Below, in pieces: positions 32,152 through 49,485 of a stretch of 64,000 nt of DNA. Made by a program: the position numbers and the translations under genes. The stretch covers positions 256,001 to 320,000 of the forward strand of contig JBHLJY010000002.1 in assembly GCA_048887225.1 (NCBI GenBank). The letters run 5' to 3'. How positions within the stretch are numbered: position 1 is the first letter of the stretch; every line of letters begins with the position of its first letter. The DNA comes from Candidatus Hodarchaeota archaeon (GTDB lineage Archaea > Asgardarchaeota > Lokiarchaeia > Sigyniarchaeales > SOKP01). Below the pieces are notes generated by a model, which ran no database searches, was not told the origin of the DNA, and was given only the letters and a program-made list of their open reading frames with translations.

Positions 32152-33456
32152 ATGTCACTACAAGGAAAATTTAAAAACAAATCCCCAGAAAGTCAAAAAA
32201 AGAAAGAAATTTTGGTCATTACGTTTGTTGGTGTTATAATTCTTTCATCGATATTCATTTACACGTATGTTATAAATTATCCAATAGAATTGTCAAATTT
32301 TCCTAGCATAAGAATCGTATCTACGGATGAGATTCCATTCGGTGAATACACTGAATGTACTGTTGAAGTAGATCGTAATGATGGATCTAATGTTAAGGAG
32401 TTAAAAGGAAGAATAAAAATTAGAGGTCATACGAATGCAAAGGATAAAATTCCTAAAAAAGAATACCGTTTAGAGCTTAATCAACGGAAATCTCTACTTG
32501 GGATGCGGGTCGATGATGACTGGCTTTTATTGGCTATGTATTTCGATTTCCCGCGCATGCGCGTTAAAATGTCTTTTGATTTATGGCGTAGTCTCTCATT
32601 TATGAATCCTACTACAATATTACCTGATTCTGAATATGTAACATTGTATATAAATGGAGATTTTGAAGGACTTTATCTCTTAACCGAAGAAATTGATAGA
32701 AGGCTACTTGGTTTAGACGATCCTCAAAATAATAATAATTCAAGCCTTCTTTTTCAATTAAAAAGGTCAGAAGATCTTACTGCATATTATAGGGGTAAGT
32801 GGGATCAAGATTGGCCTAACGAGGATGAAGGATATTATATGATAGATTATGTTTTACCTGATTTAATTAATTTCATATCTCAATCAAATAATGATGAATT
32901 TTTTGATACTGAAACAGGAATTTATTCATTATTTGATAAAATGAATTTAATCGATTTTCTAATCTTTAATATATTTATAAATCATAAAGATTTTTGGGAT
33001 ACAAACTACTATATAGCTAGAAATACTAATCCCAGTAAATTTTTTCTCGTTCCTTGGGATTTTGATGGAAGTTTTGGACAACGTGGGTGGGTAGTTTTTG
33101 ATTTTAATGAAAATAATGAAATAAATATTCTTAATGATAATTATCTTTATAAAAGATTGCTCAACAATAAAGAATTTCGGCGTGAGTGTAGCGCTCGTTG
33201 GATTTTCTTAAGAGATGTTCTCTGGACAGAAGAATTTATCACCGATATGTTAACAGACATTTATGAAGATATAAAGCCTTTAATTGAGTTAGATACAAGG
33301 AAATGGAAACCAATAACCGTTGAACATGAGTCGTTGATTGTTAATCGTTATCTACATAGTACAAAAGATTTTAATCTTGAAGAATTTATTGATGAGTTAT
33401 ACCAGTTTATACCTCATCGATTAGAATTCTGTGATGATTATTTCAATAATTTATGA
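32152..33456 (+). CDS. CotH kinase family protein, N-terminally membrane anchored (paralogue 1)
   Basis: KIRG, PKKEYRLEL, LLGMRVDDDWLL, GLYLLTE, HKDFWDTNYY, PWDFDGSFG; basic N-terminus plus TM helix. Confidence 0.92.
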   Translation: MSLQGKFKNKSPESQKKKEILVITFVGVIILSSIFIYTYVINYPIELSNFPSIRIVSTDEIPFGEYTECTVEVDRNDGSNVKELKGRIKIRGHTNAKDKIPKKEYRLELNQRKSLLGMRVDDDWLLLAMYFDFPRMRVKMSFDLWRSLSFMNPTTILPDSEYVTLYINGDFEGLYLLTEEIDRRLLGLDDPQNNNNSSLLFQLKRSEDLTAYYRGKWDQDWPNEDEGYYMIDYVLPDLINFISQSNNDEFFDTETGIYSLFDKMNLIDFLIFNIFINHKDFWDTNYYIARNTNPSKFFLVPWDFDGSFGQRGWVVFDFNENNEINILNDNYLYKRLLNNKEFRRECSARWIFLRDVLWTEEFITDMLTDIYEDIKPLIELDTRKWKPITVEHESLIVNRYLHSTKDFNLEEFIDELYQFIPHRLEFCDDYFNNL

Positions 33457-33619
33457 AAAGTATACCTAGGACCTAATTTTGGCAAAAAATCTATTTTTCT
33501 CTTAAATTGAAAGAGGAAACAGCTAAAGTTTTAATTGCTGCGTCTTTAAATTCATTAAATGTGTTAAATTTTGGTTTAAAAAAAAATTAATAATCTTAGT
33601 TAAATTTATTCTCAAAAAA

Positions 33620-34783
33620 ATGAAAGTTCTGTTAACGTTTACGTATGATGTATCTTTAGAAATATGGGAAAAAAAAGGGCTTATCTCTCGTGAAGTCTCT
33701 ATATATAAGGAGCTTAGCAAAAAAAATGTTGAGATCTCCTTTTTGACTTATGGTACTGATACTGATCTTAAGTACTCGGATTTGTTGGGAGATTTGAAAA
33801 TTTATCCTATATTCAATTATATTAGATCTAAATCAACGATTTTACAATTTATTAAATCTCTTCTTTTACCTTTAAAGCTGAGAAATGTAATAAAAGAGTT
33901 TGATATAATTAAAACTAATCAAGTTTATGGAAGTTGGATTTCATTTATTTCTAAAATATTATTTAAAAAGAGAATTATTATCAGATCCGGATTTGAATGG
34001 TTAAGCGGACATAGGACTTTTTTTAACAAAAAAGGAATAAAACAATTTATTAAATATTTACTTATGTATGTATATATTTTTATCATTGAATTCCTCTCAT
34101 ATAAAATGGCTGATGGAATTATCGTGACTGGAGATTATGATATTCCCTTTATCGTTAAATGTTTTAGATTGAAGAGCAAGTATAAAAAAAATAAAATTCG
34201 TCTATTTTATAATTTTATTGATGATATTTTATTCAAACCAACTTCATATGAAAAAAAAGATAAACATATTCTTTTTATTGGTAGATTATCTTACGAAAAA
34301 AATCTCTTTAACCTATTAGAAGCATTTAAAGAGTTGAATGGATTTGTTTTAGATATTATAGGAACGGGACCTGTAGAAGAAAAATTGAAACTTAAAGCAA
34401 AGAAACTGGGCATAAATGCAAACTTTCTTGGTATTATTCCAAATAATGAGATGCCTGAAAAAATAAATCAATATCAAATATTTATCTTACCATCTTTTTC
34501 AGAAGGAAACCCTAAAGCATTATTAGAAGCAATGAGTTGTGGAGTTGCTTGCATAGGTACAAATGTTAAAGGGATTAATAACATAATCAAACATAAACAA
34601 AATGGATATTTATGTGAAAAATCTCCTATTTCAATTAAAAAAGCAATTTTAAACCTTTATAATGATGAAAATTTCCGAAAAAAATTGGGGAAAAATGCAA
34701 GAAAATTTATTTTAGATAACTGTTCATTAACTTCTCTAGTCGAAAAAGAATATTTATTTTATCAAGAAATTTTAAGAAGATAA
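33620..34783 (+). CDS. Glycosyltransferase family 4
   Basis: GRLSYEKN, PSFSEGNPKALLEAMSCG. Confidence 0.92.
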   Translation: MKVLLTFTYDVSLEIWEKKGLISREVSIYKELSKKNVEISFLTYGTDTDLKYSDLLGDLKIYPIFNYIRSKSTILQFIKSLLLPLKLRNVIKEFDIIKTNQVYGSWISFISKILFKKRIIIRSGFEWLSGHRTFFNKKGIKQFIKYLLMYVYIFIIEFLSYKMADGIIVTGDYDIPFIVKCFRLKSKYKKNKIRLFYNFIDDILFKPTSYEKKDKHILFIGRLSYEKNLFNLLEAFKELNGFVLDIIGTGPVEEKLKLKAKKLGINANFLGIIPNNEMPEKINQYQIFILPSFSEGNPKALLEAMSCGVACIGTNVKGINNIIKHKQNGYLCEKSPISIKKAILNLYNDENFRKKLGKNARKFILDNCSLTSLVEKEYLFYQEILRR

Positions 34784-34805
34784 ACCAAAAATTTAGCAGA
34801 TACAA

Positions 34806-35597
34806 ATGAAGAGAATCTTGGTAAATATCATTAGAAATGTATATATTTGTTTAAGCTATAAGTTAAATCAAAGAAGAGGATTAAGGAAATTCATATACGA
34901 AATTTATGAATTGATAAGATTTGTTGAATTTAAATTAAAAAATTTATTTTTGAAAAAATTTACCATTGAGTATATAATACATGTAAATCCTGAGAAAATA
35001 ATATATCAGAAAAACTTACAGAAAGGAAATTGGTTACTTTTCTTAAAATTTATACAGCCTTTACTAAATATAAGGTTTAATTATTCAATGCAAGTAATTA
35101 ATGGAAATTGGGATCTAAAGGAAAATTTACAATTATTTAATGAAAATATAAAATATAAATCATATTATCAACATTTTATAGAAGGAGTTGAATGGAAATA
35201 TACTGAATATTATAAGAGAGAAAAAAAGAGATATTTAGACGGGAAAGTTAGAAAAGAATATAAATCAATAGAGGATCTCGATTTAAAATATAGATACTTT
35301 GACAAATTATATCGAAAAATTGAGAGGGAAGGTTTTAAATCTCAACGAGAAATAATTAAATCCGAGGGCATTATCACAAATCATGGTCGAGGTGTTGTAA
35401 TAAGAAAACCAGGCGACGATATAGCCATTGCCATTGGAAGAAATGGGGAATTAATCTTTTTGGATGGAAGACATAGACTTAATATAGTTAAAATGCTATA
35501 TATTCAAAACCGGAATATTAAAAAAATACCTGTTCGCGTCTTAGTTATTCATCCAGAGTTTATATCAAGCTTAGAAAAAAAATCTAAGGATTTCTAA
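34806..35597 (+). CDS. ParB/sulfiredoxin-like N-terminal domain protein
   Basis: GNWD, LYRKIEREGF, IAIGRNGELIFLDGRHRL, IPVRV...H. Confidence 0.65.
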   Translation: MKRILVNIIRNVYICLSYKLNQRRGLRKFIYEIYELIRFVEFKLKNLFLKKFTIEYIIHVNPEKIIYQKNLQKGNWLLFLKFIQPLLNIRFNYSMQVINGNWDLKENLQLFNENIKYKSYYQHFIEGVEWKYTEYYKREKKRYLDGKVRKEYKSIEDLDLKYRYFDKLYRKIEREGFKSQREIIKSEGIITNHGRGVVIRKPGDDIAIAIGRNGELIFLDGRHRLNIVKMLYIQNRNIKKIPVRVLVIHPEFISSLEKKSKDF

Positions 35598-35599
35598 TT

Positions 35600-36781
35600 A
35601 TGAATATTTTATATTTCGCACATTACTTTCCACCTCATAGTGGAGCTGCGGCAATATGTACTCATAAAATATCTGCATATCTTGCTAAATTTGGTCATAA
35701 TATATTAGTATTAGCCCCAGAGAATAAAGGTAAATTTTTTAAAGGAAAGGCTTCCAGGGTATTTAATAATATAGAAGTAATTAATTCAAATCAAATTGTT
35801 AGATTTCCTTTTAGCTTAATTATTTCGCATATAGAGAATCTTATTAAATTCTTAACAAAATTAAAAGCTAATTTTCGACCCGATATAATTTTTTCTCAAT
35901 ATCATACATTTCATTACGCAAGTGTAGTTGGGGGATATTTATCTAAGATTCTAAAAATCCCTCATATTATTAGATCTCACGATATTTTTATTGATTTAAA
36001 AACAAAATCAGTCCCTTTTAAAATTATCTTTTCAATTAATTACCCTCGAATATATCATTCGATTTGTAATTGCGATATAGACTATGTTCAAACATCAGAA
36101 ATGAAGGAATATTTATCAAAATTTAGAAAGTTTAAAGACGTTAGTTTTAGAATCCTCCATAATGGAATTGAAACTCAACAGTTTTATCCTCATAGAAACC
36201 AAGATTTTTTTAAAGATAAGTATGGATGTGATATAATTGTTTCATTTATTGGGCTAATGACACAGGATATAGGGATTCATAATTTTATTCAAATTTTACC
36301 AGAGGTATTAAAAACTCATAAGGATACTCATTTATTAATGATTGGAGATGGTCCTTATAAAAATTTTGTTTTAAAACTTGTAAAAAAACTCCAACTTAAT
36401 AAAAAGGTTCATTTTTTAGGAATTAGACCACATCATGAAATACCCTTTTTTATCAATAATTGCGACATTGGAATAGGACGCATTACTCATAAAGAAATGT
36501 GGAGATATTTTATACCCGTAAAGTGTTTGGAGTACATGGCTTGCCAAAAACCCTTTATAACTACACCAATTTCTCGAGATGCCATTAAAAATAATGATGT
36601 TGGACTTATATTAAAAAGAGATTTTAATAATAAAGAGCTTGTTACGAAACTTATTATGTTAATTGAAGACAAAAGCTTGCGAACAAAATTGGGAGAAAAT
36701 GGATTAAAAAAAATCAATCAAAATTTTAAATGGGAAGCCATTATGGAAGATTTTAATACCGATCTAGAAGAAATCAAGTAA
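35600..36781 (+). CDS. Glycosyltransferase family 4
   Basis: YFPPHSGAAA, HNGI, GDGP, PVKCLEYMA. Confidence 0.9.
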   Translation: MNILYFAHYFPPHSGAAAICTHKISAYLAKFGHNILVLAPENKGKFFKGKASRVFNNIEVINSNQIVRFPFSLIISHIENLIKFLTKLKANFRPDIIFSQYHTFHYASVVGGYLSKILKIPHIIRSHDIFIDLKTKSVPFKIIFSINYPRIYHSICNCDIDYVQTSEMKEYLSKFRKFKDVSFRILHNGIETQQFYPHRNQDFFKDKYGCDIIVSFIGLMTQDIGIHNFIQILPEVLKTHKDTHLLMIGDGPYKNFVLKLVKKLQLNKKVHFLGIRPHHEIPFFINNCDIGIGRITHKEMWRYFIPVKCLEYMACQKPFITTPISRDAIKNNDVGLILKRDFNNKELVTKLIMLIEDKSLRTKLGENGLKKINQNFKWEAIMEDFNTDLEEIK

Positions 36782-38786
36782 GGAAATAACAATCTTCATA
36801 CTCAAACAATACATGTACATCATTCTCATATAAATTTGTAAAACGCATATCGCTAGTAAAATTGTATAATTCTGTTGAGCTCACTTTCTCTAGATCTAGT
36901 AAAACATATTCGATATTTTTATCTATTATATATTTTTTTATTTCTATTATATTATTCTTACCAGCTCTGAATTTCCAATCATAAAGTTTATAAGTACTTA
37001 ATAGGCTGTGGAGTGCATCACCATAATCATCATAAAAATGAACTAATATTTTCGAGTCTTCTGGAATGTTATCTTTAATATAGAAAATTGTTTCAAAATG
37101 TTCCTCTTCAAAATAAACGTGATAATAAACGTTGCGATGGACTATAAAGGTAGAAAAAACCGATATAAGAAGTAATGTAATCACAATATTTTCAATTTTA
37201 AAAAAATTCGAGCTCTTTAATAGATTTTTATAACGGGGATAGTTGTTTCTAAGGTATAGAGTAATAATCTTAGCTTTTTTGATAATTAATTCTATAATAA
37301 AACAACAAAAGATTATAATTGGTCCCGTAAAAGCCTCCAAAATTCTAGGTATAAACCAAATAAGACTTTGGGCAAATATCGTAGGGGATTCAGAGAATAA
37401 AAGATCTCCCACATAAAATCCAATTATAACAATGAGGGAAAATTTTCCAAAATTAATTAAATCTCGATTTTTTTTCCCAAAATACCTTTTTATTGGTAAG
37501 AATAATCCTATAATAGTAAAAATAATGAAAAAGGAGAACACACGTTTTTCTAAATCTCTAAATATAGAGATTACATCATTATTTGGGATTATATCTTTTA
37601 GAATATCAGAAAAATCAAAATTCAGTAAAATCGTATTTAAACTTAATAAATTAAGATTTTTCGATAAGTATATTGTTGGAATTCCAAAAATTATAGAAAA
37701 AGCGTTTAGCAATTCAATGAAAGTTATGTTAAGAACGATCATTGTATGGAAAACGAAAGTCAATAATAGTATTAAGATCAAAATTATTGGTTTAATTGTG
37801 TATTCCATTAAAGTAATTCTTAGGGGGTAATGTTTAGAAATTAATTTAAATAAGATTAATAATCCCCAAACAATAATATAGCCAAACGCATAAAGCGGGT
37901 TAAATAGAAACATTAATTGAACGAAAAAAGCCGTTAAATAAAAAGGGCATTTTGATCGGAGAATAATTAAAGTTACAAGTATCATTATTGTAGGGAAATT
38001 TGAAGAAGTGTTCAAACAAAACCGAGAGAATAATATATTTGACATTAAAGTTAAAACTAATCCTATTAAAACTAAATAATTTTTTTCAAAGATTCTCTTC
38101 AATAGTGTTGCCATAATAATAATGTAAAAAGACATAATAGGTATACCAGCGAATTTAAAATACAAATAAGCAAAACCAAAATTTGGATTTATTAATACTG
38201 GAGCAACAATAAAAATAACAAAACCTCTCGGATAATGAATTCCGTGACGAGCTCTCCAAATATGCCCTTTCTCAAGTAGATGCCACATATGCCCCATCCA
38301 CCCATATGTATCTAGTGATGGAAGTGCGTATTCTTGAGTTATAACCCTCCATTGAACCGCAACTTGAATAAATATGATAAAAATCACAATTATTATTAAA
38401 GAGATTAAATCCCGTGGGTTCTTCTTAAATCTCCTCTTGATTGAATTAATAAAATCATTAACCTTATCTCTTGTTAATTTTTTACGATATATTAAAAACA
38501 AAACAAATAAAATATCTATTATTATAAGTGAGAGGTAGGCTGAGTAAAAATTAAAAAAGTGGAAAATATCTAAAATGAAACTTAATGAAATATAAATTGA
38601 CAAACCAATTCCAAATGATATTAAAAAAATTTCTAAAAAATTAATGTCCCAATCCTTCTTATTGATTTTTTTCAAAAAATAAAAGAAAATATATCCAAAA
38701 ACCGATATTAAAAATACGAAAAGGAAAAACGTTAAAGCAACTAATACCATATTAAAAAAGAGCCACTCTGGAGCTGTATTCACCAT
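36774..38786 (-). CDS. Multi-pass membrane protein, GT-C/STT3-like, paralogue 3
   Basis: LDTYGW...YPRG; C-terminal IKDNIPEDSKILVHFYDDYG...IEYVLL...LYENDVH. Confidence 0.6.
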   Translation of the reverse strand: MVNTAPEWLFFNMVLVALTFFLFVFLISVFGYIFFYFLKKINKKDWDINFLEIFLISFGIGLSIYISLSFILDIFHFFNFYSAYLSLIIIDILFVLFLIYRKKLTRDKVNDFINSIKRRFKKNPRDLISLIIIVIFIIFIQVAVQWRVITQEYALPSLDTYGWMGHMWHLLEKGHIWRARHGIHYPRGFVIFIVAPVLINPNFGFAYLYFKFAGIPIMSFYIIIMATLLKRIFEKNYLVLIGLVLTLMSNILFSRFCLNTSSNFPTIMILVTLIILRSKCPFYLTAFFVQLMFLFNPLYAFGYIIVWGLLILFKLISKHYPLRITLMEYTIKPIILILILLLTFVFHTMIVLNITFIELLNAFSIIFGIPTIYLSKNLNLLSLNTILLNFDFSDILKDIIPNNDVISIFRDLEKRVFSFFIIFTIIGLFLPIKRYFGKKNRDLINFGKFSLIVIIGFYVGDLLFSESPTIFAQSLIWFIPRILEAFTGPIIIFCCFIIELIIKKAKIITLYLRNNYPRYKNLLKSSNFFKIENIVITLLLISVFSTFIVHRNVYYHVYFEEEHFETIFYIKDNIPEDSKILVHFYDDYGDALHSLLSTYKLYDWKFRAGKNNIIEIKKYIIDKNIEYVLLDLEKVSSTELYNFTSDMRFTNLYENDVHVLFEYEDCYFLT

Positions 38787-38940
38787 TATTTACAGTTTCT
38801 CTTAATATAAAATTCTCTTGTTAATTTCTTTACCAAATATTATCTTCTAAAAATATTTTAGCTTATTAAAAGTTCAGCCTTATAATCATTTAAAAAAAAG
38901 ATATTTTTATTAGATTAAAAACTATTTAACTTGAACAAGT

Positions 38941-39714
38941 ATGAGTAAAGGATTAATCCCAAAAATGTTTCAGAAGTATTTTAATCGCTTTGAGATTAAA
39001 TATAGAATTTCTATTCCTGAACGGGATAATTTAATCGACAATTTCAGACCATTCATGGAATTAGATCCTCATGTTAAGAAGGGCTATAAAAATTATGAGG
39101 TAAGAAGTGTTTATTTTGATTCTCCACTTAAAAGAGCATATTTTGAAAAAATTTATGGGATTAAAGTTAGGGTTAAGTTGCGAATTCGATATTATCCTGA
39201 TTTTCAAGTTGGTGAGAATGAATTAGTTTTTATTGAACTTAAACGTAAAATTAATGATAATGTTTCAAAGAGCCGGGTTTTAGTTCCATTTGCAGATTCA
39301 TTTGAAATTATTAACAGCCATACCCAAAAAGCGAAAGAATTTTATGAAAAAGCCTCTCAAGAGGATAGAGAAAAATTAAATGATATATGGTATCTTTATG
39401 ATAGATATAATTTAAAACCAGTTTGTATGGTGTGGTATCATAGACGACCATTCATTTCTAAGATTGAACAAGGACGATTTAGAATAACATTTGATACCAG
39501 CGTTAAGGTTCGAAACCATAATTTTGATTTGCATATGGGAGGGATTGGTGGTAGATATGTAATACCACCTCAAATATGCATAATGGAAATAAAATTTACT
39601 AATATGATCCCTGCTTGGGCAATTCGTATAGTACAGAAGAATAATGTAATCCAAGAAAAGATGAGCAAATTTGCCAGCGGATTAGAAAGAACAAAAATTC
39701 TGAGCATCTTATAA
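38941..39714 (+). CDS. VTC domain (polyphosphate polymerase, CYTH/TTM fold) protein
   Basis: RFEIKY, VRSVYFDS, KLRIRYY, FIELKRK, RITFD, IMEIKF, SKF. Confidence 0.92.
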   Translation: MSKGLIPKMFQKYFNRFEIKYRISIPERDNLIDNFRPFMELDPHVKKGYKNYEVRSVYFDSPLKRAYFEKIYGIKVRVKLRIRYYPDFQVGENELVFIELKRKINDNVSKSRVLVPFADSFEIINSHTQKAKEFYEKASQEDREKLNDIWYLYDRYNLKPVCMVWYHRRPFISKIEQGRFRITFDTSVKVRNHNFDLHMGGIGGRYVIPPQICIMEIKFTNMIPAWAIRIVQKNNVIQEKMSKFASGLERTKILSIL

Positions 39715-39751
39715 TAAAGTTTTTTTATAATATTTAATAGGTTTTAATAGA

Positions 39752-40519
39752 ATGATATTTCAAAATATTGTTTTTGATGCGATTGATGCCTTTCTTGAAG
39801 AATCGTTTAGAAACATCGGGACAGATATTAATCTTTTAGATGTTGGTCTTGTTTTATTTTGGAGTATCTTCTTATCTTTTATTATCGCAATCACTTATAG
39901 AGGAACTCACAGGGGCGTTTCATACAGCTCAAATTTTACTCAAAACTTAGTAATAATTGGATGCGTTGTTGGAATTGTAATGTTAGTCATCGGGACAAAT
40001 ATTGCCAGAGCATTCACTTTAGTGGGGGCCCTTTCAATTATCAGATTTAGGACTGCGATAAAAGATCCGAAAGATGTTGGATTTATTTTTTTTGTAATGG
40101 TTGTTGGAATGGCCTGTGGAACTAAATTCTATCCAGTTGCTATAATAACGACTTTTGTGGGATGTGGATTAATTTATTTTATGACTTATTCCAATTTTGG
40201 ACAAAAAGGTTTAGCACAGGATATATTAGAAATGTACTTTCCTATAACTGAGGATTACGCAAAAATTTTAAGTCCTATTTTTGTACGCCATTTGAAATAT
40301 TACTCTCTTTTATCTGTGGATACAGTTGATAGTAAAACAAATCGCTTGAGTTTCATTGTTACTTTTAAAGCAAGGAGAAAATTATTAAATTTTAAAAACA
40401 AAAGAGAAGTTTTTGATGACTCGCTTACTCCAAAATCCGCATTATTGTCAGATTTGCAAAGTATTGCTTATATTACCAATATAAAAGTAATAGAAGGTTC
40501 CACCTCTGTGGAATTATAA
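39752..40519 (+). CDS. DUF4956 domain membrane protein
   Basis: TM helices with IGTNIARAFTLVGALSIIRFRTAIKDPKD...GMACG; directly follows the VTC gene. Confidence 0.9.
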   Translation: MIFQNIVFDAIDAFLEESFRNIGTDINLLDVGLVLFWSIFLSFIIAITYRGTHRGVSYSSNFTQNLVIIGCVVGIVMLVIGTNIARAFTLVGALSIIRFRTAIKDPKDVGFIFFVMVVGMACGTKFYPVAIITTFVGCGLIYFMTYSNFGQKGLAQDILEMYFPITEDYAKILSPIFVRHLKYYSLLSVDTVDSKTNRLSFIVTFKARRKLLNFKNKREVFDDSLTPKSALLSDLQSIAYITNIKVIEGSTSVEL

Positions 40520-40554
40520 TTTTTTTTACAACATATTATTCATACTTATGGAAG

Positions 40555-41826
40555 TTAGAATTGTACAAAATAAGAATCGCAAAAAACCAACCTATTTGGA
40601 ATCCATTCAAAAACATGATCAATAGATTTATCGATTTCCTCTTCCCAATTTTCTGCCCAAAGATTGTGGTACCAAAGATTAGTATCAATATCTAAAACCT
40701 CCTTAATTTCTTCATAATATTCCATTAACATATCTATTATTGCTTCCTCGACCCAAATTGTATCTCTCAAACTAAACCAACGAGTTTTACAATCATTTTT
40801 AAATTCAGCATTAGTGAGAAGTCTATCAAATAATAGATTATGCTGTCTAAGAAATTCTTCATCATTCCTGTCTGGCGCACTGTTTCTTCTCAACCATTGA
40901 CCAAAACAGCGATCAAAATCCCATGGAACGAGAAAAAATTTACTCGGATTGGTATTTCTCACTATGAAGTAATTATGATCCCAAAAATCATCATGTAAAA
41001 TAAAAAAATTGTAAATGTAAAAGTCAATCAAATTTTGTTTATCGAATTTTGAATAAATTCCATTCTCAACATCAAAGAATTCTTCTTCAGGTGTATTTTT
41101 GATGAAATAGACAAGGTCAGACATGATTGCATCCATAATATAGATCCCATCATATTCATTAGGCCAGTCTTGTTCCCATTCTTTATATAAATAGTAATGA
41201 AAATTATCATGCGCGTATGAAGATTGAAAAATCAAACTCGACATGATATTATTCATCGCATCATCTAGAGCAAATAATCTTCTGTCATTTTTTTCAACAA
41301 GAAGATAAAGTCCTCGAAGTTCCCTGTTGACATATACAATTACGTATTCGGAATCGGGCAATATAGCAGTAGGGTTTGATGGTGTTAAGGTTTGATATAA
41401 TTCCATCGCTAATTTAATTTGCATTCGAGGAAGATCACTATACATAGCGAATAACATCCAATCATCATCTTCCCTCATTCCAAGAATGGATTTTGGTTCT
41501 GAGAGTTCAATTCTGTATCCTTTCTTTGGTAAATCGGCGTTATATCTTCCTCTTATTTTAACAATACATTTGAGAGGGGCTATGTTTTCAGATTCATCAG
41601 GACAATTCAATTCAAATGTACCATCCACATAATCGCCATGTATAATCTCCTCCTCAGTCACTATGTTTATTACTGGAAAATTCTCTGGGCTTATTGGAGA
41701 ATTTCTAATGTAAGTATAGACAAATACAATAGTAACTAAAATAGCAAAAATCAAAATTATAATTACTAACTCTTTTTTCCTTCTATGAGTCGGTAATTTA
41801 TTTGTAAATTGATTCTGATCTGACAT
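40555..41826 (-). CDS. CotH kinase family protein, membrane anchored (paralogue 2)
   Basis: KIRGR, PKKGYRIEL, LGMREDDDW, HDDFWDHNYF, PWDFDRCFG. Confidence 0.92.
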   Translation of the reverse strand: MSDQNQFTNKLPTHRRKKELVIIILIFAILVTIVFVYTYIRNSPISPENFPVINIVTEEEIIHGDYVDGTFELNCPDESENIAPLKCIVKIRGRYNADLPKKGYRIELSEPKSILGMREDDDWMLFAMYSDLPRMQIKLAMELYQTLTPSNPTAILPDSEYVIVYVNRELRGLYLLVEKNDRRLFALDDAMNNIMSSLIFQSSYAHDNFHYYLYKEWEQDWPNEYDGIYIMDAIMSDLVYFIKNTPEEEFFDVENGIYSKFDKQNLIDFYIYNFFILHDDFWDHNYFIVRNTNPSKFFLVPWDFDRCFGQWLRRNSAPDRNDEEFLRQHNLLFDRLLTNAEFKNDCKTRWFSLRDTIWVEEAIIDMLMEYYEEIKEVLDIDTNLWYHNLWAENWEEEIDKSIDHVFEWIPNRLVFCDSYFVQF

Positions 41827-41956
41827 AGGGATATAACCAAAAGGTAATAATGTTTATTTGTTTTTTAATTCAATTTTCACTGTATTATAAAACTTAATTT
41901 TTTAAAATATTTGAATTGTCTTAGTCTTAAAATATAGATAAACAAAATAAGTATCA

Positions 41957-43213
41957 TTAAAAACCTCCGAAATATGAATCACAAAATATTAATCGCTTCG
42001 GAATCCAATCAAACAATTTATCAACAGCCTCGTCAACTTTAATAACCCATTCAGTATCATAATACCAAAGATACCATTTATTTATGTCAGTTTCTAATAT
42101 ATCTTTAATCTCATCATGTATTTCAGTTAACATATCTGAAATAGATTCCTCACTCCAAATTGATTCTCTCAAGAAAAACCATCGATTTTTAACATCCTTT
42201 TTAAAATCTTTATTATTCATTAATCGAACATATAAATAATTTCTCTTAAATATTTCAATTTCAATATTCTCCTCTGGATCAGATTTTCTTCCTAAAAATT
42301 GGCCAAAACTCGAATCAAAATCCCAAGGAATCAGAAAAAATTTACTAGGATGAGTATTTCTGACCAAAAAATAATTATGAGACCAAAAGTCTTTATGCAA
42401 AATGAAAAAATTAAAAATTAAAAAATCTATCAAACTCATCTTATCAAATTTATTATATATACCATGAGAATCGTTGAAAAATTCACTATCAGATGTTTGA
42501 CATATGAAAGGAATTAATACACTGAAGACCTCATCCTTAATATAAATACCATCATATTCATTAGGCCAATCCTGATCCCAGCCATCGTTTGAATGCTCAA
42601 AAAAATTTAAATCGTGTGAATCTGATTGAAATATTAAGCTTGAATTATCATTATTTTGAGCATCATCAAGCCCAAACAATCTTCTGTCATTCTTTTCAGC
42701 AAGTAAATAGAGTCCTTGAAATTCACCATTTACATATAAAATAACATATTCAGATTCAGGTAAAATAGCAGTAGGGTTTGTTGGTAATAGACTACGCCAT
42801 AAATCCATTGATAATTTTATTCTCATGTCGGTTAAATCCATGAACATAGCAAACAATTGCCAGTCATCATCCTCTCTCATCCCAAGAAGCGAAATCCTAT
42901 CAGATAATTCTATGCGATATCCTTTCTTAGGCATTTGAGCATTAAGTCTTCCTCTAATTTTTATTTGACACTTAATAGGAGCGATATTTTCTGACTCATC
43001 AGGGCTTTCTAATTCGAAGGTACCATCGATATAATCGTCAGTATTAATATCTCCTTGAAATGTTATTTTTATTGTAGGGAATTCTTTTGATAGTATTGGA
43101 GTTTTGTAAATATAAGTGTAATAAACCACTGCAAAAATCAGAATAGAAGAAATAATAAAGACTATTAAAAAATCATTTTTTTGCTTAGAATTTGGCAGCT
43201 TTAAGCTAAACAT
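41957..43213 (-). CDS. CotH kinase family protein, membrane anchored (paralogue 3)
   Basis: KIRGR, PKKGYRIEL, LGMREDDDW, HKDFWSHNYF, PWDFDSSFG. Confidence 0.92.
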   Translation of the reverse strand: MFSLKLPNSKQKNDFLIVFIISSILIFAVVYYTYIYKTPILSKEFPTIKITFQGDINTDDYIDGTFELESPDESENIAPIKCQIKIRGRLNAQMPKKGYRIELSDRISLLGMREDDDWQLFAMFMDLTDMRIKLSMDLWRSLLPTNPTAILPESEYVILYVNGEFQGLYLLAEKNDRRLFGLDDAQNNDNSSLIFQSDSHDLNFFEHSNDGWDQDWPNEYDGIYIKDEVFSVLIPFICQTSDSEFFNDSHGIYNKFDKMSLIDFLIFNFFILHKDFWSHNYFLVRNTHPSKFFLIPWDFDSSFGQFLGRKSDPEENIEIEIFKRNYLYVRLMNNKDFKKDVKNRWFFLRESIWSEESISDMLTEIHDEIKDILETDINKWYLWYYDTEWVIKVDEAVDKLFDWIPKRLIFCDSYFGGF

Positions 43214-43367
43214 TGATCTGAGATAATCTTGGTTAAGTTTTCTTATAAATATTTTCCACTATTATTTTAAAAAAAACTTTGAATTAAATCTATGTATAAT
43301 AAAAAATATTAGATATATTGATTTGATTACAAAATCCTTAATATAGTTCAAATATTTCGAGAAATTA

Positions 43368-44708
43368 ATGACTGAAATTAAAAGTAGTCCTTTTGGTTTA
43401 AAGATTCAATATTATTTTAAGAGCTTTACCGAGATGGATGATAACTTATCTAATTTAGTAGCTAAAAATGGATTTAATAGTTTTTCACCCGAGGGGATTT
43501 CGAGTTATTTTACATTTCGCTTTCCAATTGGGAATTTAACTATGTTTAAGGATTATTTTAAAATACCATGTGGCTCAGAATTAAAAAATGACGAAATCCA
43601 AACTTATTGGTATCCAAAATTTTACCCAATTCCAATAAAATTAGAAGAGGCGCTTAAAAAAATTGAGGAAATATTATTTGCAGCAATTAAAAATTTATTG
43701 GAAGGAAAAGATAAATTTGGATTTGCTATGAGCGGTGGTGTTGATAGTTCTCTCATCGTTGCTCTCTGTAGGAAATTATATCCAGATATAGAACTTTATA
43801 CATATTCAGCAGGCTTTTATGGTGAAGATGAATTTGAATATTCAAGATTAATAGCAAAAAAGCTTAATACTATTCACACTGAGAAGATTTTATATAAAGA
43901 CGATTATATTGGGAAATATTCCTTATTAGCTCCATTAATTAGATATAAAGGAGAGCCATTACATCCTAATGAATTAGCGTTAGGAAATATTGAGAAAATC
44001 GCTAAAAAGGATGGTTGCGACATAGTGCTATGCGGTGAAGGTGCTGATGATATTTTTGGAGGTTATGGACAAAATTTTAGAATGTATTTGAATTATAAAA
44101 AGGATGTACCTTTTTTCAGATTCTTTCTAGACAATTATCGTTATTTCTCTATTGAAGATAAGGAATATCTGCTTAAAAATGAATATAATATTAATGATTA
44201 TGAAATATTAATGAATGCTTTAAATGAAAAAGAATTTCCAGGAGATATTAAGAATTATGTTGCTTATTTTACGCAAAAAATCCATACAATAGGACTAATA
44301 ACCCGTGGTGTTAATGCAATGCGCTATAATGGTTTTCCCCCAGGATTTCCTTATATTAATATGGATTTAGTTAATTTTGTAAATTCTTTACCATTCAAAT
44401 TTAAAATTAAGTGGAAAAGCAAGAATTCAAAAGAAAAAGCCAAAGGATTAAATTTTAGAGATATTAGCGAGAATTATGATATTCCAAAATTTATTTTAAA
44501 AAAATTAGCTGAAAAATACTTACCTCATAAAGTAATTTATCGTCCAAAATATGGCTTTCCTGTTCCATTTGACTTTTGGTTTGAAGACTTAAAAGATTGG
44601 AACTTGGATGACGAGATATTTAAGACAAATGATATAAGTAGATTGAGTGGATGGAAAAAGTTTATGATAATCAATTTAAACACATTTTTTAATGAGTTTA
44701 GAAATTAA
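43368..44708 (+). CDS. Asparagine synthetase-like amide ligase lacking most of the glutaminase domain
   Basis: SGGVDSS, GEGADDIFGGY, RPKYGFPVP; N-terminus begins at PFGLKIQYY (equivalent to D.FG.KPLYY), no N-terminal Cys. Confidence 0.85.
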   Translation: MTEIKSSPFGLKIQYYFKSFTEMDDNLSNLVAKNGFNSFSPEGISSYFTFRFPIGNLTMFKDYFKIPCGSELKNDEIQTYWYPKFYPIPIKLEEALKKIEEILFAAIKNLLEGKDKFGFAMSGGVDSSLIVALCRKLYPDIELYTYSAGFYGEDEFEYSRLIAKKLNTIHTEKILYKDDYIGKYSLLAPLIRYKGEPLHPNELALGNIEKIAKKDGCDIVLCGEGADDIFGGYGQNFRMYLNYKKDVPFFRFFLDNYRYFSIEDKEYLLKNEYNINDYEILMNALNEKEFPGDIKNYVAYFTQKIHTIGLITRGVNAMRYNGFPPGFPYINMDLVNFVNSLPFKFKIKWKSKNSKEKAKGLNFRDISENYDIPKFILKKLAEKYLPHKVIYRPKYGFPVPFDFWFEDLKDWNLDDEIFKTNDISRLSGWKKFMIINLNTFFNEFRN

Positions 44709-44736
44709 TTAATATAATTGATATTTATTTTAAATA

Positions 44737-45474
44737 ATGAAAATTATAATACTTGCTGCGGGCAAGGGGGAGAGACTTTTTCCTCTCACTAAAAATACTC
44801 CAAAACCTTTAATCGATTTAGGAAATGGAGAAACATTATTAGAAAGGCAGCTGCAATATTTATATAAGTCTAATGTTATCGATGAGGTTATTATTGTTAT
44901 AGGCTATTTACACGAACAAATTGAATCAAAATTAAAAAGTTATAAGACTGAACTGAAAATAAAAACTGTATATAATCCGTTCTATGAAATATCTAATAAC
45001 CTCATTACTCTTTGGTTAAGCAAATATGAAATGAATGAGGATTTTCTAATTGCCAATGGAGACAATATAATAGCCAGTGATGTTATTAGAGATTTAGTCA
45101 ATAAAACAAATGAAGGAATTTATGTAACAATCTGCTATAGAGATAAATATAGCGAAGAAGACATGAAGGTAAATTTAGATCCTAATAAAAAAATTCTAAG
45201 AGTAAGTAAAGAAATTAAGAATGGAGATGCAGAATCTGTTGGACTTGTTAAAGTCTCGGGTGAAAAATTTAGAAAAATCTATAAAGATATCTTGGAAGAA
45301 TTAGCGAGAAATAAAGATTATTTAAATAAATTTTGGTTGGAGACTTTTAACATCTTAGCAAATAAAGGTGTTGAAATTAATTCATTTGAAATAGATAAAG
45401 ATAAATGGCGAGAAATAGATTTTCATTTTGATTTACATGATATAACAGAAATGATCAAGAAATTCAAGATTTAA
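44737..45474 (+). CDS. Phosphocholine cytidylyltransferase (LicC)-like nucleotidyltransferase
   Basis: ILAAGKGERL, PKPL, YNPFYEISNN, NGD, EDMKV, ESVG, WREIDF. Confidence 0.85.
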   Translation: MKIIILAAGKGERLFPLTKNTPKPLIDLGNGETLLERQLQYLYKSNVIDEVIIVIGYLHEQIESKLKSYKTELKIKTVYNPFYEISNNLITLWLSKYEMNEDFLIANGDNIIASDVIRDLVNKTNEGIYVTICYRDKYSEEDMKVNLDPNKKILRVSKEIKNGDAESVGLVKVSGEKFRKIYKDILEELARNKDYLNKFWLETFNILANKGVEINSFEIDKDKWREIDFHFDLHDITEMIKKFKI

Positions 45475-45527
45475 CTCGTTATTGTTATTTAATTAATTAT
45501 TTTAGTATAAGCACCAAAGTTAAGAAA

Positions 45528-46583
45528 ATGGTTTCACACATTTCAAGTAAAATTCAGAAATTATTTAAAAAAATCTATAAATTAACAAAACCGAAATATA
45601 TTGTTCTAAAAAATAAATTTTCCGAGAAGAATTTTGGAATTATAGATCGGCTCGAAAAAATCAAATCTATCTCAGATCGAGAGAAATTAATAAATCTATT
45701 AATAAATGTATATGGAATACAAGTAGAGTTCCCCTTACAAATCAAAAATAAAGTGAAGGGAATTAAAACAATTCAAGGTAAAATTAATTACGATGGTATT
45801 TTCTATGATAGATCAAGTTTTAGTAGCTATGATGGCTTAGAAATCCCTATTTATGTCATTTATCCTTTTAATTTTGATCCAAATAAAAAATATCCTACAA
45901 TTATAATTTTCTCCGGACACGGATCTGCGAAACAAGCCGCATTTGAAAAAGATTCTTATCAACATGGCGCAGGTCTCGCTTTATCGAAGCAAGGATTTCT
46001 TGTATATGTAATGGAAAACCGAGGTATGGGAAAATTATCATATCTAGGTAGTCATCTTCGAATTGATGCAGTGGCAAGGATTATCGGTGGAACTTGGTAT
46101 GGAGAAATTATCACTGATGCTTTATGGTTAGTTGAGAATTTACATCATGAATCTAATGTTGATAATAATCGCATTGGAACTGCTGGTATATCAACTGGTG
46201 GTGCGTTAAGTCTTATAGTTGCTGCTTTAGATAACCGTATTTCTGCATCATATGTTCAAGGATATTTAGGTTCGTTTAAAAAAACTTTTGGGATAAGAGC
46301 TAATCATTGTTTATGTGGTCACATTCCAGGTATATTAAAAATCTGCGATATGGCTGATATAGCATCTCTTATCGCCCCTCGTCCTCTAATATTTATTAAT
46401 GGTACTTCAGATATATTCTATTATATTGACGCAAAAGAAGAATTTAATAATATTTTACCTATATATAAAGAATTAGGAAACGAAGAAAAACTGAAATTAC
46501 TGGTTCCTAAAGGTGTTTGCCATGAATTTTCTACTGATATTGCTATAAAATGGTTTTCTGAGCAATTTAAAACCAATCGTTAG
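45528..46583 (+). CDS. Alpha/beta hydrolase (acetyl-xylan esterase/dienelactone hydrolase-like)
   Basis: Nucleophile elbow GISTGG, GTSD, CHEF (Ser-Asp-His), IAPRPL. Confidence 0.85.
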   Translation: MVSHISSKIQKLFKKIYKLTKPKYIVLKNKFSEKNFGIIDRLEKIKSISDREKLINLLINVYGIQVEFPLQIKNKVKGIKTIQGKINYDGIFYDRSSFSSYDGLEIPIYVIYPFNFDPNKKYPTIIIFSGHGSAKQAAFEKDSYQHGAGLALSKQGFLVYVMENRGMGKLSYLGSHLRIDAVARIIGGTWYGEIITDALWLVENLHHESNVDNNRIGTAGISTGGALSLIVAALDNRISASYVQGYLGSFKKTFGIRANHCLCGHIPGILKICDMADIASLIAPRPLIFINGTSDIFYYIDAKEEFNNILPIYKELGNEEKLKLLVPKGVCHEFSTDIAIKWFSEQFKTNR

Positions 46584-46632
46584 AAATACTAAATTCTATT
46601 TTTTCAGTTATTTATTATAATTTATAGATTGT

Positions 46633-47898
46633 TTACATATTATAGAAATATAAATCACAGAATTCTAAACGTTCTGGAATCCAATTGAACAAATGGCTAA
46701 CAGAATTTTGAATATTATTTTTCTTGTCTTCCCTGAATGAAATGGGTTCACGGGAATTCCATAAATCTACATCAATTTCTAAAACTTGTTTTATATCGTC
46801 ATATATTTCTTCCAATATATTTAGAATTTGATCTTCTGTCCATATTATCTCTCTCAATTCAAACCAACGATTTTTACAATCTTCTCTAAATGAAAAATTA
46901 TTTAATAATCGATGATATAGCGCATTTATTTTTACTATTTCCGATTCAGGATTCCTGTCTGAATCATATGTATCCCAAATATACCCTCCTAAGCTTCGAT
47001 CAAAATCCCATGGGATAAGAAAAAACTTACTTGGATAGGTATTTCTCACTATAAAATAATTATGGTTCCAGAAATCTTGATGATCTATGAAAAAATTAAA
47101 AATGAAAAAATCTACTAAATTCTGTTTATTAAATTTGGAATAAATTCCGTTTTTACAATTGAAGAAAACTTCAATTGAAGGTTGATGTATAAAATTAATT
47201 AAATCGTATAGAACAGCATCCATAATGTAAATGCCTTCATATTCATTAGGCCAATCTTGTTCCCATACATCTTTGTCGTAGTAATTTAAATCTGTCTCGT
47301 GCTTTACTTGGAATATTAAACTTGAATTGACGTTATTCTGACAATTTTCGAGATTAAATAACCTTCTATCATTTTTTTCAGCAAGCAAATATAATCCTCG
47401 GAACTCACCATTCAAATATAAACACACATATTCCGAATTAGGCAAAATAGCTGTGGGATCTGTATAAAGAAGGCTTCTCCAAAGTTCCATTGCTAATTTG
47501 ATTCTCATTCTTGGATAATCAAAATACAAAGAAAATAAAAGCCAATCATCATCTTCTCTCATTCCAAGTAACGATTTCGGTTCTTTTAGTTCTATGCGAT
47601 ATCCTTTTTTTGGTGATATTTTGTTCCAACCCAATCCACTTCCTCTTAATCTTATTTTTGAGTCTATTTGTTCAATTTTATTTGAATCTTTACAATTATC
47701 TACTTCAAATGTACAGTCTATATATTCCTCATAATCAAGATCTCCTTCAAAATTAATTTTTATTATAGGAAATCCTTTAAAACAAATTGGAATGTATCTA
47801 ATATAGTTAAAATACACTAATAATGACATAAGTACGGTTCCAATTACTGTTAAAACTTTTATTTCTTTCTTTCGTCTAGTAGAAGGAGATTTTTGCAT
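46633..47898 (-). CDS. CotH kinase family protein, membrane anchored (paralogue 4)
   Basis: RLRGS, PKKGYRIEL, LGMREDDDW, HQDFWNHNYF, PWDFDRSLG. Confidence 0.92.
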   Translation of the reverse strand: MQKSPSTRRKKEIKVLTVIGTVLMSLLVYFNYIRYIPICFKGFPIIKINFEGDLDYEEYIDCTFEVDNCKDSNKIEQIDSKIRLRGSGLGWNKISPKKGYRIELKEPKSLLGMREDDDWLLFSLYFDYPRMRIKLAMELWRSLLYTDPTAILPNSEYVCLYLNGEFRGLYLLAEKNDRRLFNLENCQNNVNSSLIFQVKHETDLNYYDKDVWEQDWPNEYEGIYIMDAVLYDLINFIHQPSIEVFFNCKNGIYSKFNKQNLVDFFIFNFFIDHQDFWNHNYFIVRNTYPSKFFLIPWDFDRSLGGYIWDTYDSDRNPESEIVKINALYHRLLNNFSFREDCKNRWFELREIIWTEDQILNILEEIYDDIKQVLEIDVDLWNSREPISFREDKKNNIQNSVSHLFNWIPERLEFCDLYFYNM

Positions 47899-47976: not shown

Positions 47977-49485
47977 TTAAATATTAATTTTTTTTTTGGA
48001 TTTATTGTTCCTCGTAATTAAATCTTGATAAAGTATATTTACTAAGTTTTTGATATTTAACATTAACTTAAAATATCTGATATCCTCTTTTTTTATACCT
48101 CTTAAAATATATAGAATAATAAAATAAAAGAAAATATTGAGGATTGCGAATAGTGGAATTAAGTAAAAGTAAGTCAAGAAATCTATCATGGCAATAACCA
48201 ATACATTAAAGAGAAATATTAAAAGAACAACAAACAAGTATAAAATTATTCCAAAATTATAACCATACTTATATTTTTTCCATAAAATTATTCTGATAAG
48301 TAGTGAGTATGTGAAATTTCCAAATAGTATAGCTAATGCGAGACCATTAATTCCAAGATTTAAACCATTAGGTGCAATAAAAAGAATAATAAGAAAAGTT
48401 TTATAAAATTCTCCTATAATTTTAATTGCTGAAAACAATTTCGTTAAACCTCGGGCGTTTAAATCAGTAAATACAGCCACATCATTTATTACAAAAATTT
48501 GAGCTAAGATTAATATATTAAAAACAAAAATAGATGGTTCATACACATCACCTAAGAAAATCAATATTAATTCATCTGAATATAAAAATGAAAGAAGTAT
48601 TATTGCTCCAAATAAAATACATGAATATTTCGTAATTTTTTTAATTATCCTCTTGTTTTTTTCTAAATTGCCTTTTTTTATGTTTTTTGCAAAGATAGAA
48701 ACCATTACTAAACTTATTACATTCGGAATAATTGTCCTAAAAACAGAAAAGTGTTCTGCTGCATAATAGAAAGCAACGGCTTCAGAAGAAATCCAAAAAT
48801 TTATTAATATAATTCCTATATTGCCACTAATTAAAACGGCAATATTAGAAAAAATTAAGGGATATGTAAATTTAAGATATTTTTTAATTACAGAATTCGT
48901 CGGTTTACTTATATTATAACGTAAAATATAGGGTAATAAAAAAGCCGTATGCAATATTGTAGATAATAAGTATATAAACGATAATGTAATTTCATTTTTT
49001 GGATAAATATATAATCCAATAACCAAAAGCAATATCTTTGATGAAGAAATAATTATCCAAGGAAAAGATCCTTTAATAATCTCGTTATCGGCAATTAAAA
49101 TGTTTGAGAACGATGTATTAATGCTTTGAACAATAAGTTCAACAATAAAAATAATAATAATCGTTGTAATTGTCTTATCAAAATTAAAAAGACTTAATAT
49201 CATGTAATAAAAACATATTGAGATACAAATAAAAACTGCTTTAAAACTTAAAAGAGTTCCAATGCTACTTGATTTACTCGTTTCCTCAGGATAAATTTTT
49301 AAATGGGCTATATTAAAACCTAAGTTAAAAATAAAGCTAAAGATAGCTACAAAAGCAATCGCAAATCTAACAATTCCAATGACAGCAGGTGCATAAAAAA
49401 GTACCATTAAATAAAAAAAAACAAAACTCAGCGCATACTTAGAGACTTTAAAGACAACAACGAAAATTATCCTTTGCGACTGCAT
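47977..49485 (-). CDS. Oligosaccharide flippase (Wzx/PST, MOP superfamily)
   Basis: About 13-14 TM segments; FNLGF, KFTYPL, VAFYYAA, LGINGLALA. Confidence 0.82.
   Translation of the reverse strand: MQSQRIIFVVVFKVSKYALSFVFFYLMVLFYAPAVIGIVRFAIAFVAIFSFIFNLGFNIAHLKIYPEETSKSSSIGTLLSFKAVFICISICFYYMILSLFNFDKTITTIIIIFIVELIVQSINTSFSNILIADNEIIKGSFPWIIISSSKILLLVIGLYIYPKNEITLSFIYLLSTILHTAFLLPYILRYNISKPTNSVIKKYLKFTYPLIFSNIAVLISGNIGIILINFWISSEAVAFYYAAEHFSVFRTIIPNVISLVMVSIFAKNIKKGNLEKNKRIIKKITKYSCILFGAIILLSFLYSDELILIFLGDVYEPSIFVFNILILAQIFVINDVAVFTDLNARGLTKLFSAIKIIGEFYKTFLIILFIAPNGLNLGINGLALAILFGNFTYSLLIRIILWKKYKYGYNFGIILYLFVVLLIFLFNVLVIAMIDFLTYFYLIPLFAILNIFFYFIILYILRGIKKEDIRYFKLMLNIKNLVNILYQDLITRNNKSKKKINI

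Follow-up and report, generated by a model that had tools for sequence, protein, structure and literature searches.

Introduction

Genes for a CotH protein, a protein with a polyphosphate polymerase domain and a DUF4956 protein have been described as accessory genes of the Pel loci of Gram-positive bacteria, where no mechanism was assigned to them (Whitfield et al. 2020, PMC7112168). In Streptococcus intermedius the trio consists of SIR_1594, SIR_1593 and SIR_1592, and it was shown that deletion of the DUF4956 gene or of the CotH gene lowers the Pel level as well as aggregation (PMC12345266). The same paper, from 2025, states that the trio was found at Pel loci only (PMC12345266). Here, we analysed a trio of this kind from a Loki-type Asgard archaeon (Promethearchaeota). 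It lies on a stretch of 64 kb of Candidatus Hodarchaeota archaeon (positions 256,001 to 320,000 of contig JBHLJY010000002.1, assembly GCA_048887225.1), hereafter called the window, which carries one VTC gene, one DUF4956 gene and four CotH genes. This locus and its relatives contradict the restriction of the trio to Pel loci. A first-pass annotation of the window had stated that neighbourhoods of VTC, DUF4956 and CotH occur in bacteria without an assigned mechanism, and this is borne out by both published descriptions (PMC7112168, PMC12345266).

Results

The window has a G+C content of about 27% and belongs to a genome of 3.27 Mb that is 98% complete. At its core, the gene of a soluble, stand-alone VTC domain of the Vtc4-type triphosphate-tunnel kind, a putative polyphosphate polymerase of 257 aa (38941-39714, + strand; Pfam PF09359, E 4.5e-36), is followed on the same strand, after a gap of 37 bp, by the gene of a DUF4956 membrane protein (39752-40519, +; PF16316, E 2.4e-14). 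Two genes for anchored CotH kinase-fold proteins, CotH2 (423 aa; 40555-41826, -; E 4.4e-38) and CotH3 (418 aa; 41957-43213, -; E 8.7e-44), converge on this pair, and only 35 bp separate the stop of DUF4956 from the stop of CotH2. The type-II anchored kinase-fold protein CotH1 (434 aa; 32152-33456, +; PF08757, E 1.9e-45) is encoded 5.5 kb upstream of the pair, and a further anchored one, CotH4 (421 aa; 46633-47898, -; E 6.3e-40), 6.1 kb downstream.

All six proteins score above the Pfam cut-offs: 125 bits against 23 for VTC (covering profile positions 1-232 of 235), 53.9 against 30.6 for DUF4956, and 132-156 against 23.8 for the four CotH proteins. Hence, the family assignments of the first-pass annotation hold, and so does the arrangement it had described, a co-oriented VTC-DUF4956 pair with two converging CotH genes and two more nearby. 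VTC and DUF4956 are each encoded once in the whole genome and CotH five times; the fifth copy of CotH lies on a separate contig.

For linkage and distribution we used 101 genomes of the archaeon's family, 251 genomes of its phylum and 80 named species-level loci (17 Asgard, 63 bacterial); since related species are not independent, the linkage figures are counts and not statistics. Within the family, the 11 of 101 genomes that encode full-length VTC are exactly those with full-length DUF4956. CotH was found in 10 of these 11 genomes, versus five of the 90 others. Four of these five are only 69-82% complete, and the fifth has a VTC remnant of 132 aa beside its CotH. The distance between DUF4956 and VTC is below 300 bp in 15 of the 17 Asgard loci and in 60 of the 63 from bacteria. 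Moreover, 16 of the 17 Asgard loci have a CotH gene no more than 7 kb from VTC, despite rearranged gene orders: in MK-D1 the order is a CotH fused to a lamin tail domain (LTD), VTC and DUF4956, while in L. ossiferum Loki-B35 it is VTC, CotH and DUF4956. The arrangement of VTC, DUF4956 and CotH is not due to chance. Co-occurrence of the three families in archaea had been proposed as a check on the first-pass annotation, and the counts from the 101 genomes and the 17 Asgard loci bear it out.

In the phylum sample, VTC and DUF4956 are both present in seven genomes from four families, and one of the two in four more; CotH was found only in the order of the window archaeon. The trio reaches 16 of 17 species-level loci of VTC-bearing Loki-type Asgard archaea, yet only about 11% of the genomes of the family. 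For part of the Asgard group it is a stable trait that is probably inherited vertically. Bacteroides thetaiotaomicron, Corynebacterium glutamicum and Methanosarcina acetivorans, which served as control genomes, each hold all three families. Scans for related loci with a single-protein query returned nothing.

Decayed copies of the module were also observed. A closed relative of 4.36 Mb (L021, G267:C1:3914424-3917092) contains a CotH gene with two TAA stops and a truncated VTC, and no DUF4956; in G078 (L039:5057-6882) a CotH stands beside the 132-aa VTC remnant. Where Asgard genomes with the VTC-DUF4956 pair lack CotH, a lamin-tail-domain protein of about 250 aa is encoded next to the pair (L012:7249-11192, G080; L020:1509-3720, G197), and in G080 a Cthe_2159 carbohydrate-binding beta-helix protein is a neighbour as well. 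The fusion of CotH to a lamin tail domain in MK-D1 is found in G179 as well.

Nine residues of yeast Vtc4 are critical, namely K200, R264, R266, K281, Y359, R361, E426, S457 and K458, and K458 is the only one of them that is replaced in the inactive Vtc2 and Vtc3 (10.1101/2023.01.27.525886). We compared a profile of 44 diverse VTC representatives with the Vtc4 catalytic domain 3g3q, whose residue numbers equal the chain index + 185, and obtained a match with an E-value of 7.9e-23 in two stretches. All nine residues are retained in the VTC of the window: K20, R81, R83, K101, Y166, R168, E216 (corresponding to the Mn ligand E426), S242 and K243, so that the equivalent of K458 is kept. They are invariant in the 44 representatives, whose identity to the window protein is 26-48%. 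The AF2 model (pLDDT 92) has Vtc4 (3g3r) as its best fold match (E 1.5e-14, TM-score 0.72-0.73), and CYTH/TTM triphosphatases and cyclases rank behind it (E 2e-8 or weaker, TM-score at most 0.51). The residues and the modelled fold indicate a catalytically complete enzyme of the Vtc4 type, in agreement with the first-pass annotation, and it is quite probably active as a polyphosphate polymerase.

Neither an SPX domain nor a fused Vtc1-type transmembrane (TM) domain was found in the 257 aa of this protein, in which Pfam recognises one domain only and which lacks hydrophobic segments. In a library of 1.84 billion proteins we found homologues in 13,717 clusters at E <=1e-3, and the best 150 are all stand-alone proteins of 176-304 aa. 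The stand-alone form of about 250 aa is the norm for the VTC family. The closest named relatives of the window's VTC and DUF4956 proteins, with 50-64% identity, come from metagenome-assembled genomes of Lokiarchaeota/Promethearchaeota, from Candidatus Lokiarchaeum ossiferum and from Promethearchaeum syntrophicum MK-D1; the nearest bacterial VTCs share only about 30-35%. A quick tree of 81 proteins unites the 18 Asgard VTC sequences in one clade (SH-aLRT 99), which a long branch separates from those of Bacteroidota, Ignavibacteriota and other bacteria. A special tie between the Asgard and eukaryotic VTCs is not shown by this tree, in which the Asgard clade stands beside bacterial proteins and which held no eukaryotic sequences.

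Genome searches, each of which recovered the expected matches in control genomes, detected neither PPK1 nor PPK2 nor PPX/GppA in the 98%-complete genome. Across the 101 genomes of the family, PPK1 and PPK2 went undetected as well. VTC is therefore the only candidate for a polyphosphate synthase that we found in the genome. Apart from the genomes with VTC, the family seems to lack the known polyphosphate metabolism.

The AF2 monomer model of DUF4956 (pLDDT 75.5) comprises an acidic N-terminal helix, five TM helices (28-52, 60-80, 82-98, 106-123 and 127-146) and a C-terminal beta-alpha-beta domain. Searches of the PDB gave no match by sequence even at E 10 and nothing at E <=0.001 with Foldseek, while the matches obtained with VIA-align are confined to the C-terminal domain, which aligns to ferredoxin/ACT-like folds (S6, NikR, IlvN and the C-terminal domain of MgtC) with Z-scores of 8-10. 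The model predicts an N-terminus on the outside and an ACT-like C-terminal domain in the cytoplasm. Invariant residues are Y49, R50, T52, H53, S57, Y58 and S59 as well as R86, R98, R100 and D108. With the C-terminal domain placed in the cytoplasm, both the Y49-S59 set and R98, R100 and D108 would map to the cytoplasmic face of the membrane, as two polar or basic loops that are the most conserved parts of the protein. The stretch IIRFRT..K, from which the first-pass annotation had suggested a basic pore, marks in the monomer model no more than the place where the short third helix ends on the cytoplasmic side. A prediction of the VTC:DUF4956 complex gave an ipSAE of 0.00 in both runs, which had no controls and weigh neither for nor against an interaction. 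We consider a contact between the two proteins likely.

DUF4956 has no Pfam match to MgtC. When it was compared by hhalign with ten Asgard MgtC-domain proteins the probability was 0.6%, from two shallow alignments (Neff about 2.3). Of 41 relatives searched, 10 encode a conserved protein of about 420 aa in which an MgtC domain at the N-terminus precedes a long additional multi-TM region (L042:658-1914, G000:C3; orthologues L043-L051); its occurrence does not correlate with that of VTC.

Each of the four CotH proteins has one hydrophobic segment within residues 12-38 (CotH1 and CotH2, 20-38; CotH3, 15-33; CotH4, 12-30). It is preceded by a tail with a net charge of +2 to +5 (+4 in CotH1, +5 in CotH4) and followed by a domain with a net charge of -21 to -35. 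Because of the basic tail, the single TM segment and the acidic domain, the positive-inside rule predicts an N-in/C-out topology with the catalytic domain outside the cell. This N-terminal anchor is shared by the larger Asgard CotH orthologues, among them the MK-D1 and L. ossiferum proteins. N-glycosylation sequons are not enriched in the CotH ectodomains (z -0.3 to -1.5); cytoplasmic proteins behave alike, so that this measure is uninformative.

The catalytic residue D228 and the metal-binding D251 of B. subtilis CotH are required for its kinase activity (PMC7821199). They correspond to D280 and D303 of CotH1. These two aspartates and an Asn located five positions downstream of the first do not vary among ten paralogues and orthologues. 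In our alignment D280, N285, D303 and D305 of CotH1 are invariant and align to the CotH of B. cereus (5jd9). A quick tree suggests that the single-TM CotH genes of about 420 aa expanded within the genus: orthologues of several paralogues occur in sister species, and CotH2 groups with CotH3 as its sister, the two being tandem duplicates. This pattern would fit diverged acceptor specificities. The fifth CotH of the genome (L017:9793-11118, G000:C4; 441 aa) is encoded directly downstream of an ORF (open reading frame) of 980 aa and is near-identical to a copy in G025.

The metagenomic protein P0241 (597 aa) combines a CotH domain (12-287), one hydrophobic stretch (about 318-340) and a VTC domain (375-594) in a single chain. 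It was the sole fusion among 8000 scored candidates in a search for longer homologues. Its N-terminus is cut off, the CotH profile match beginning at profile position 75, and in its nearest relative (L022, 48% identity) the three genes are separate. If P0241 is real and not an artefact of assembly or gene calling, its sequence predicts that CotH and VTC lie on opposite sides of the membrane. Three lines of evidence thus support the outward-facing CotH domain of the first-pass annotation: the positive-inside rule, the anchor that all examined Asgard orthologues share, and this fusion.

The genes around the trio confirm that it lies inside a glycan locus, as had been noted at first reading. Between CotH1 and VTC we found two GT4 glycosyltransferases (GT; 33620-34783, +, Pfam Glycos_transf_1, E 6.1e-38; and 35600-36781, +, E 1.7e-22) and a GT-C-like (PMT_2/ArnT-like) membrane glycosyltransferase (36774-38786, -). 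The latter was assigned from its neighbours in the ESM Atlas; it has no Pfam match and about 15 hydrophobic segments, predicted to span the membrane, and its Atlas neighbours by feature and structure are PMT_2, dolichyl-P-mannose mannosyltransferase-like and RgtA-like clusters. An orthologue adjoins the trio in a sister species (G017; locus L008). Downstream of CotH4 follows a Wzx/PST-type polysaccharide flippase (47977-49485, -; Polysacc_synt, E 2.2e-11). Further GT4 genes lie at 27160, 29360, 51455 and 52662, a GT2 gene at 28447 and a second Wzx-type flippase gene at 54011, and more than one AsnB-type synthetase domain is encoded within or around the trio.

The GT-C-like protein is one of three paralogous membrane proteins of about 665-670 aa without a Pfam match (1863-3872, 25028-27022 and 36774-38786, all on the - strand), which share 27-34% identity with each other. 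The two GT4 genes upstream of VTC enclose a gene for a strongly basic protein of 263 aa (34806-35597, +; 54 K+R versus 29 D+E), which has no Pfam or NCBIfam match and only archaeal hypothetical clusters as Atlas neighbours. Its DGRHR motif may resemble that of ParB/Srx-type phosphotransferases.

Between CotH3 and CotH4 lies a cassette of three genes on the + strand (43368-46583). It encodes an AsnB-type synthetase domain without the glutaminase domain (43368-44708; Asn_synthase, E 8.3e-39, residues 99-412 only; all NCBIfam matches below cut-off), a sugar-phosphate nucleotidyltransferase (44737-45474; NTP_transferase, E 3.5e-14; NCBIfam Arch_glmU-like N-terminal domain) and an alpha/beta-hydrolase resembling AXE1 esterases (45528-46583; AXE1, E 1.9e-11). 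The cassette may serve the supply or the editing of a glycan substituent. At the upstream edge of the glycan locus we observed a radical-SAM/SPASM protein (19569-20729, +) and a methyltransferase-glycosyltransferase fusion of 672 aa (20743-22761, -).

Discussion

Our data suggest, with a probability that falls somewhat short of even, that the trio is a membrane-spanning phosphate module in a surface-glycan locus, in which a polyphosphate polymerase docked on DUF4956 serves extracytoplasmic partners, here the CotH proteins. Inside the cell, VTC as a tunnel enzyme of the Vtc4 type would polymerise phosphate from ATP. In the membrane, DUF4956 would anchor VTC and pass the growing chain or its phosphoryl groups to the outer face. 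Outside, the anchored CotH proteins would draw on it to transfer phosphate or phosphate chains onto the glycan or glycoprotein that the GT4, GT2, GT-C and Wzx genes produce, and the CotH paralogues might each serve different acceptors. Translocation of polyphosphate or phosphoryl groups by VTC and DUF4956 is, taken by itself, a tentative assumption that we doubt slightly more than we believe. That CotH draws its phosphate from polyphosphate is unlikely.

Several observations weigh against this phosphate module. We know of no kinase with a CotH/Fam20-like fold that uses polyphosphate. The ATP-type catalytic residues are fully conserved in the CotH proteins of the window, and the only CotH that has been assayed, from B. 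subtilis, uses ATP, as demonstrated with gamma-32P-ATP (PMC7821199). No pore, oligomer or similarity to a Vtc1-type channel or to another membrane protein of solved structure was found for the small five-helix DUF4956. The fifth CotH of the genome is unlinked to VTC. Furthermore, two other Asgard families have VTC-DUF4956 pairs without CotH, and in bacteria CotH lies within 7 kb of VTC in only at least 19 of 63 loci, a lower bound, as are all our bacterial CotH counts, which come from a home-made iterated profile. Such pairs without CotH, in other Asgard families and at many bacterial loci, imply that feeding CotH is not the only role of the pair. Finally, no phenotype was reported for the VTC deletion in S. 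intermedius (PMC12345266).

An explanation that we regard as rather unlikely is that VTC, held at the membrane by DUF4956, makes a cytoplasmic store of polyphosphate as a phosphate or energy buffer for a phosphate-rich surface polymer, while the CotH proteins use another donor (e.g. released ATP) and are linked to the pair by co-regulation only. The authors of the S. intermedius study suggest that polyphosphate may stay in the cytoplasm (PMC12345266), and this explanation is in line with a catalytically complete VTC that is the sole polyphosphate synthase candidate found, as well as with the lineages whose pair has no CotH. However, no PPX or PPK2 was detected that could draw on such a store, and a soluble polymerase would need no obligate membrane partner. 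A module present in about 11% of the family genomes, with CotH in 10 of 11, would be odd for a housekeeping store, and the CotH-TM-VTC fusion is hard to square with co-regulation alone.

The pair might also be a regulatory unit that adjusts glycan export or CotH activity to the phosphate or energy status and transports no phosphate, with DUF4956 as an MgtC-like regulator carrying an ACT sensor and VTC as a sensor or hydrolase of phosphate or triphosphate; this is very unlikely. The ACT/ferredoxin-like fold of the C-terminal domain of DUF4956, matched by MgtC C-terminal domains with Z-scores of 8.3-8.7, would agree with such a role, and so would the altered amount of Pel after deletion of the DUF4956 gene and the assignment of the S. 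intermedius homologue to the MgtC family by CDD, as given by the authors (PMC12345266). Yet dozens of unrelated ferredoxin-like domains score as well as the ACT-like matches, the profile probability of 0.6% was obtained against the clade's own MgtC-domain proteins, and VTC keeps the full set of polymerase residues including the Vtc4-type Lys and is far closer to Vtc4 than to TTM hydrolases. That the genes stand together only because glycan islands gather transferred genes can hardly be right. A patchy distribution in Asgard archaea (4 of 28 families positive) and the decayed copies in G078 and G267 could be read in this way. It is contradicted by the linkage counts, with identical presence of VTC and DUF4956 across 101 genomes, adjacency of the two in 75 of 80 loci from two domains of life, and CotH beside the pair in 16 of 17 Asgard species despite shuffled gene order.

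The interpretation offered by the first-pass annotation, a split polymerase-translocase that supplies phosphate to CotH enzymes outside the cell, stands in part: the families, the CotH topology, the type of VTC, the linkage and the glycan context hold, and the delivery of phosphate and its use by CotH keep the lower probabilities stated above. In its full form, with VTC-DUF4956 as a prokaryotic polyphosphate polymerase-translocase, CotH as the first kinase-fold enzymes to use exported polyphosphate and glycans from the PMT-like GT-C as their target on the outer face, we consider this reading quite improbable. If true, it would be a functional counterpart of the eukaryotic VTC combined with glycan kinases of the lumen, of which POMK and Fam20B follow PMT-type transferases.

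The trio as such is already known from the Gram-positive Pel loci. The window adds an Asgard member, a genome in which no PPK was found, and the CotH paralogues next to PMT-like GT-C genes; the trio thereby extends beyond bacterial Pel loci into the Asgard archaea. In the literature searched, no paper dealt with the VTC of Asgard archaea, and none put polyphosphate forward as the donor of CotH. Prokaryotic enzymes that phosphorylate outside the cell have no obvious source of ATP, and the trio may be one answer to this problem. Both cultured Asgard strains, MK-D1 and Loki-B35, have an intact trio, so that polyphosphate and surface phosphorylation can be examined directly. Moreover, B. thetaiotaomicron, C. 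glutamicum and M. acetivorans are genetically tractable carriers of the three families.

Among known systems, the MgtC family, with five TM helices and a cytoplasmic ACT-like domain, resembles DUF4956 in overall layout and in the C-terminal fold, but no similarity at the profile level was detected in the shallow alignments compared, and the conserved motifs differ. The CotH spore-coat kinase of Bacillus (5jd9/5jda) belongs to the same Pfam family as the CotH proteins of the window and shares their catalytic and metal-binding aspartates. Whereas the Bacillus enzyme acts in the mother-cell cytoplasm, with ATP and on CotB and CotG as substrates, the archaeal proteins are predicted to be membrane-anchored ecto-enzymes in a glycan locus. 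In this respect they resemble the Fam20-like kinases of the secretory pathway, whose domain, as predicted here for CotH, lies across the membrane from the cytoplasm.

The eukaryotic VTC complex (yeast Vtc4/Vtc3 or Vtc2/Vtc1; 3g3q, 7ytj, 8i6v) has in common with the window VTC the nine critical residues and the best fold match. It also ties a cytoplasmic polymerase to a membrane component, and the lumen of the vacuole is topologically equivalent to the exterior of the cell. In contrast to the window protein, with which it shares about 18% identity, the eukaryotic VTC has an SPX domain and a fused Vtc1-type TM domain of three helices, whereas the archaeal partner is the unrelated DUF4956.

The trio of the Pel loci adjoins pelDEADAFG; among the 40 ORFs of the window that were scanned (19.5-59.7 kb) no Pel-specific family was found, only the generic GT4, GT2 and PST families. 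It has one secreted CotH-FN3 protein, in contrast to four single-TM paralogues in the window, and a bacterial instead of an archaeal host. Nevertheless, the two trios are built alike, with the same three Pfam families encoded side by side, an exported or anchored CotH, a soluble VTC, a multi-TM DUF4956 with an ACT-like tail, and exopolysaccharide genes as neighbours.

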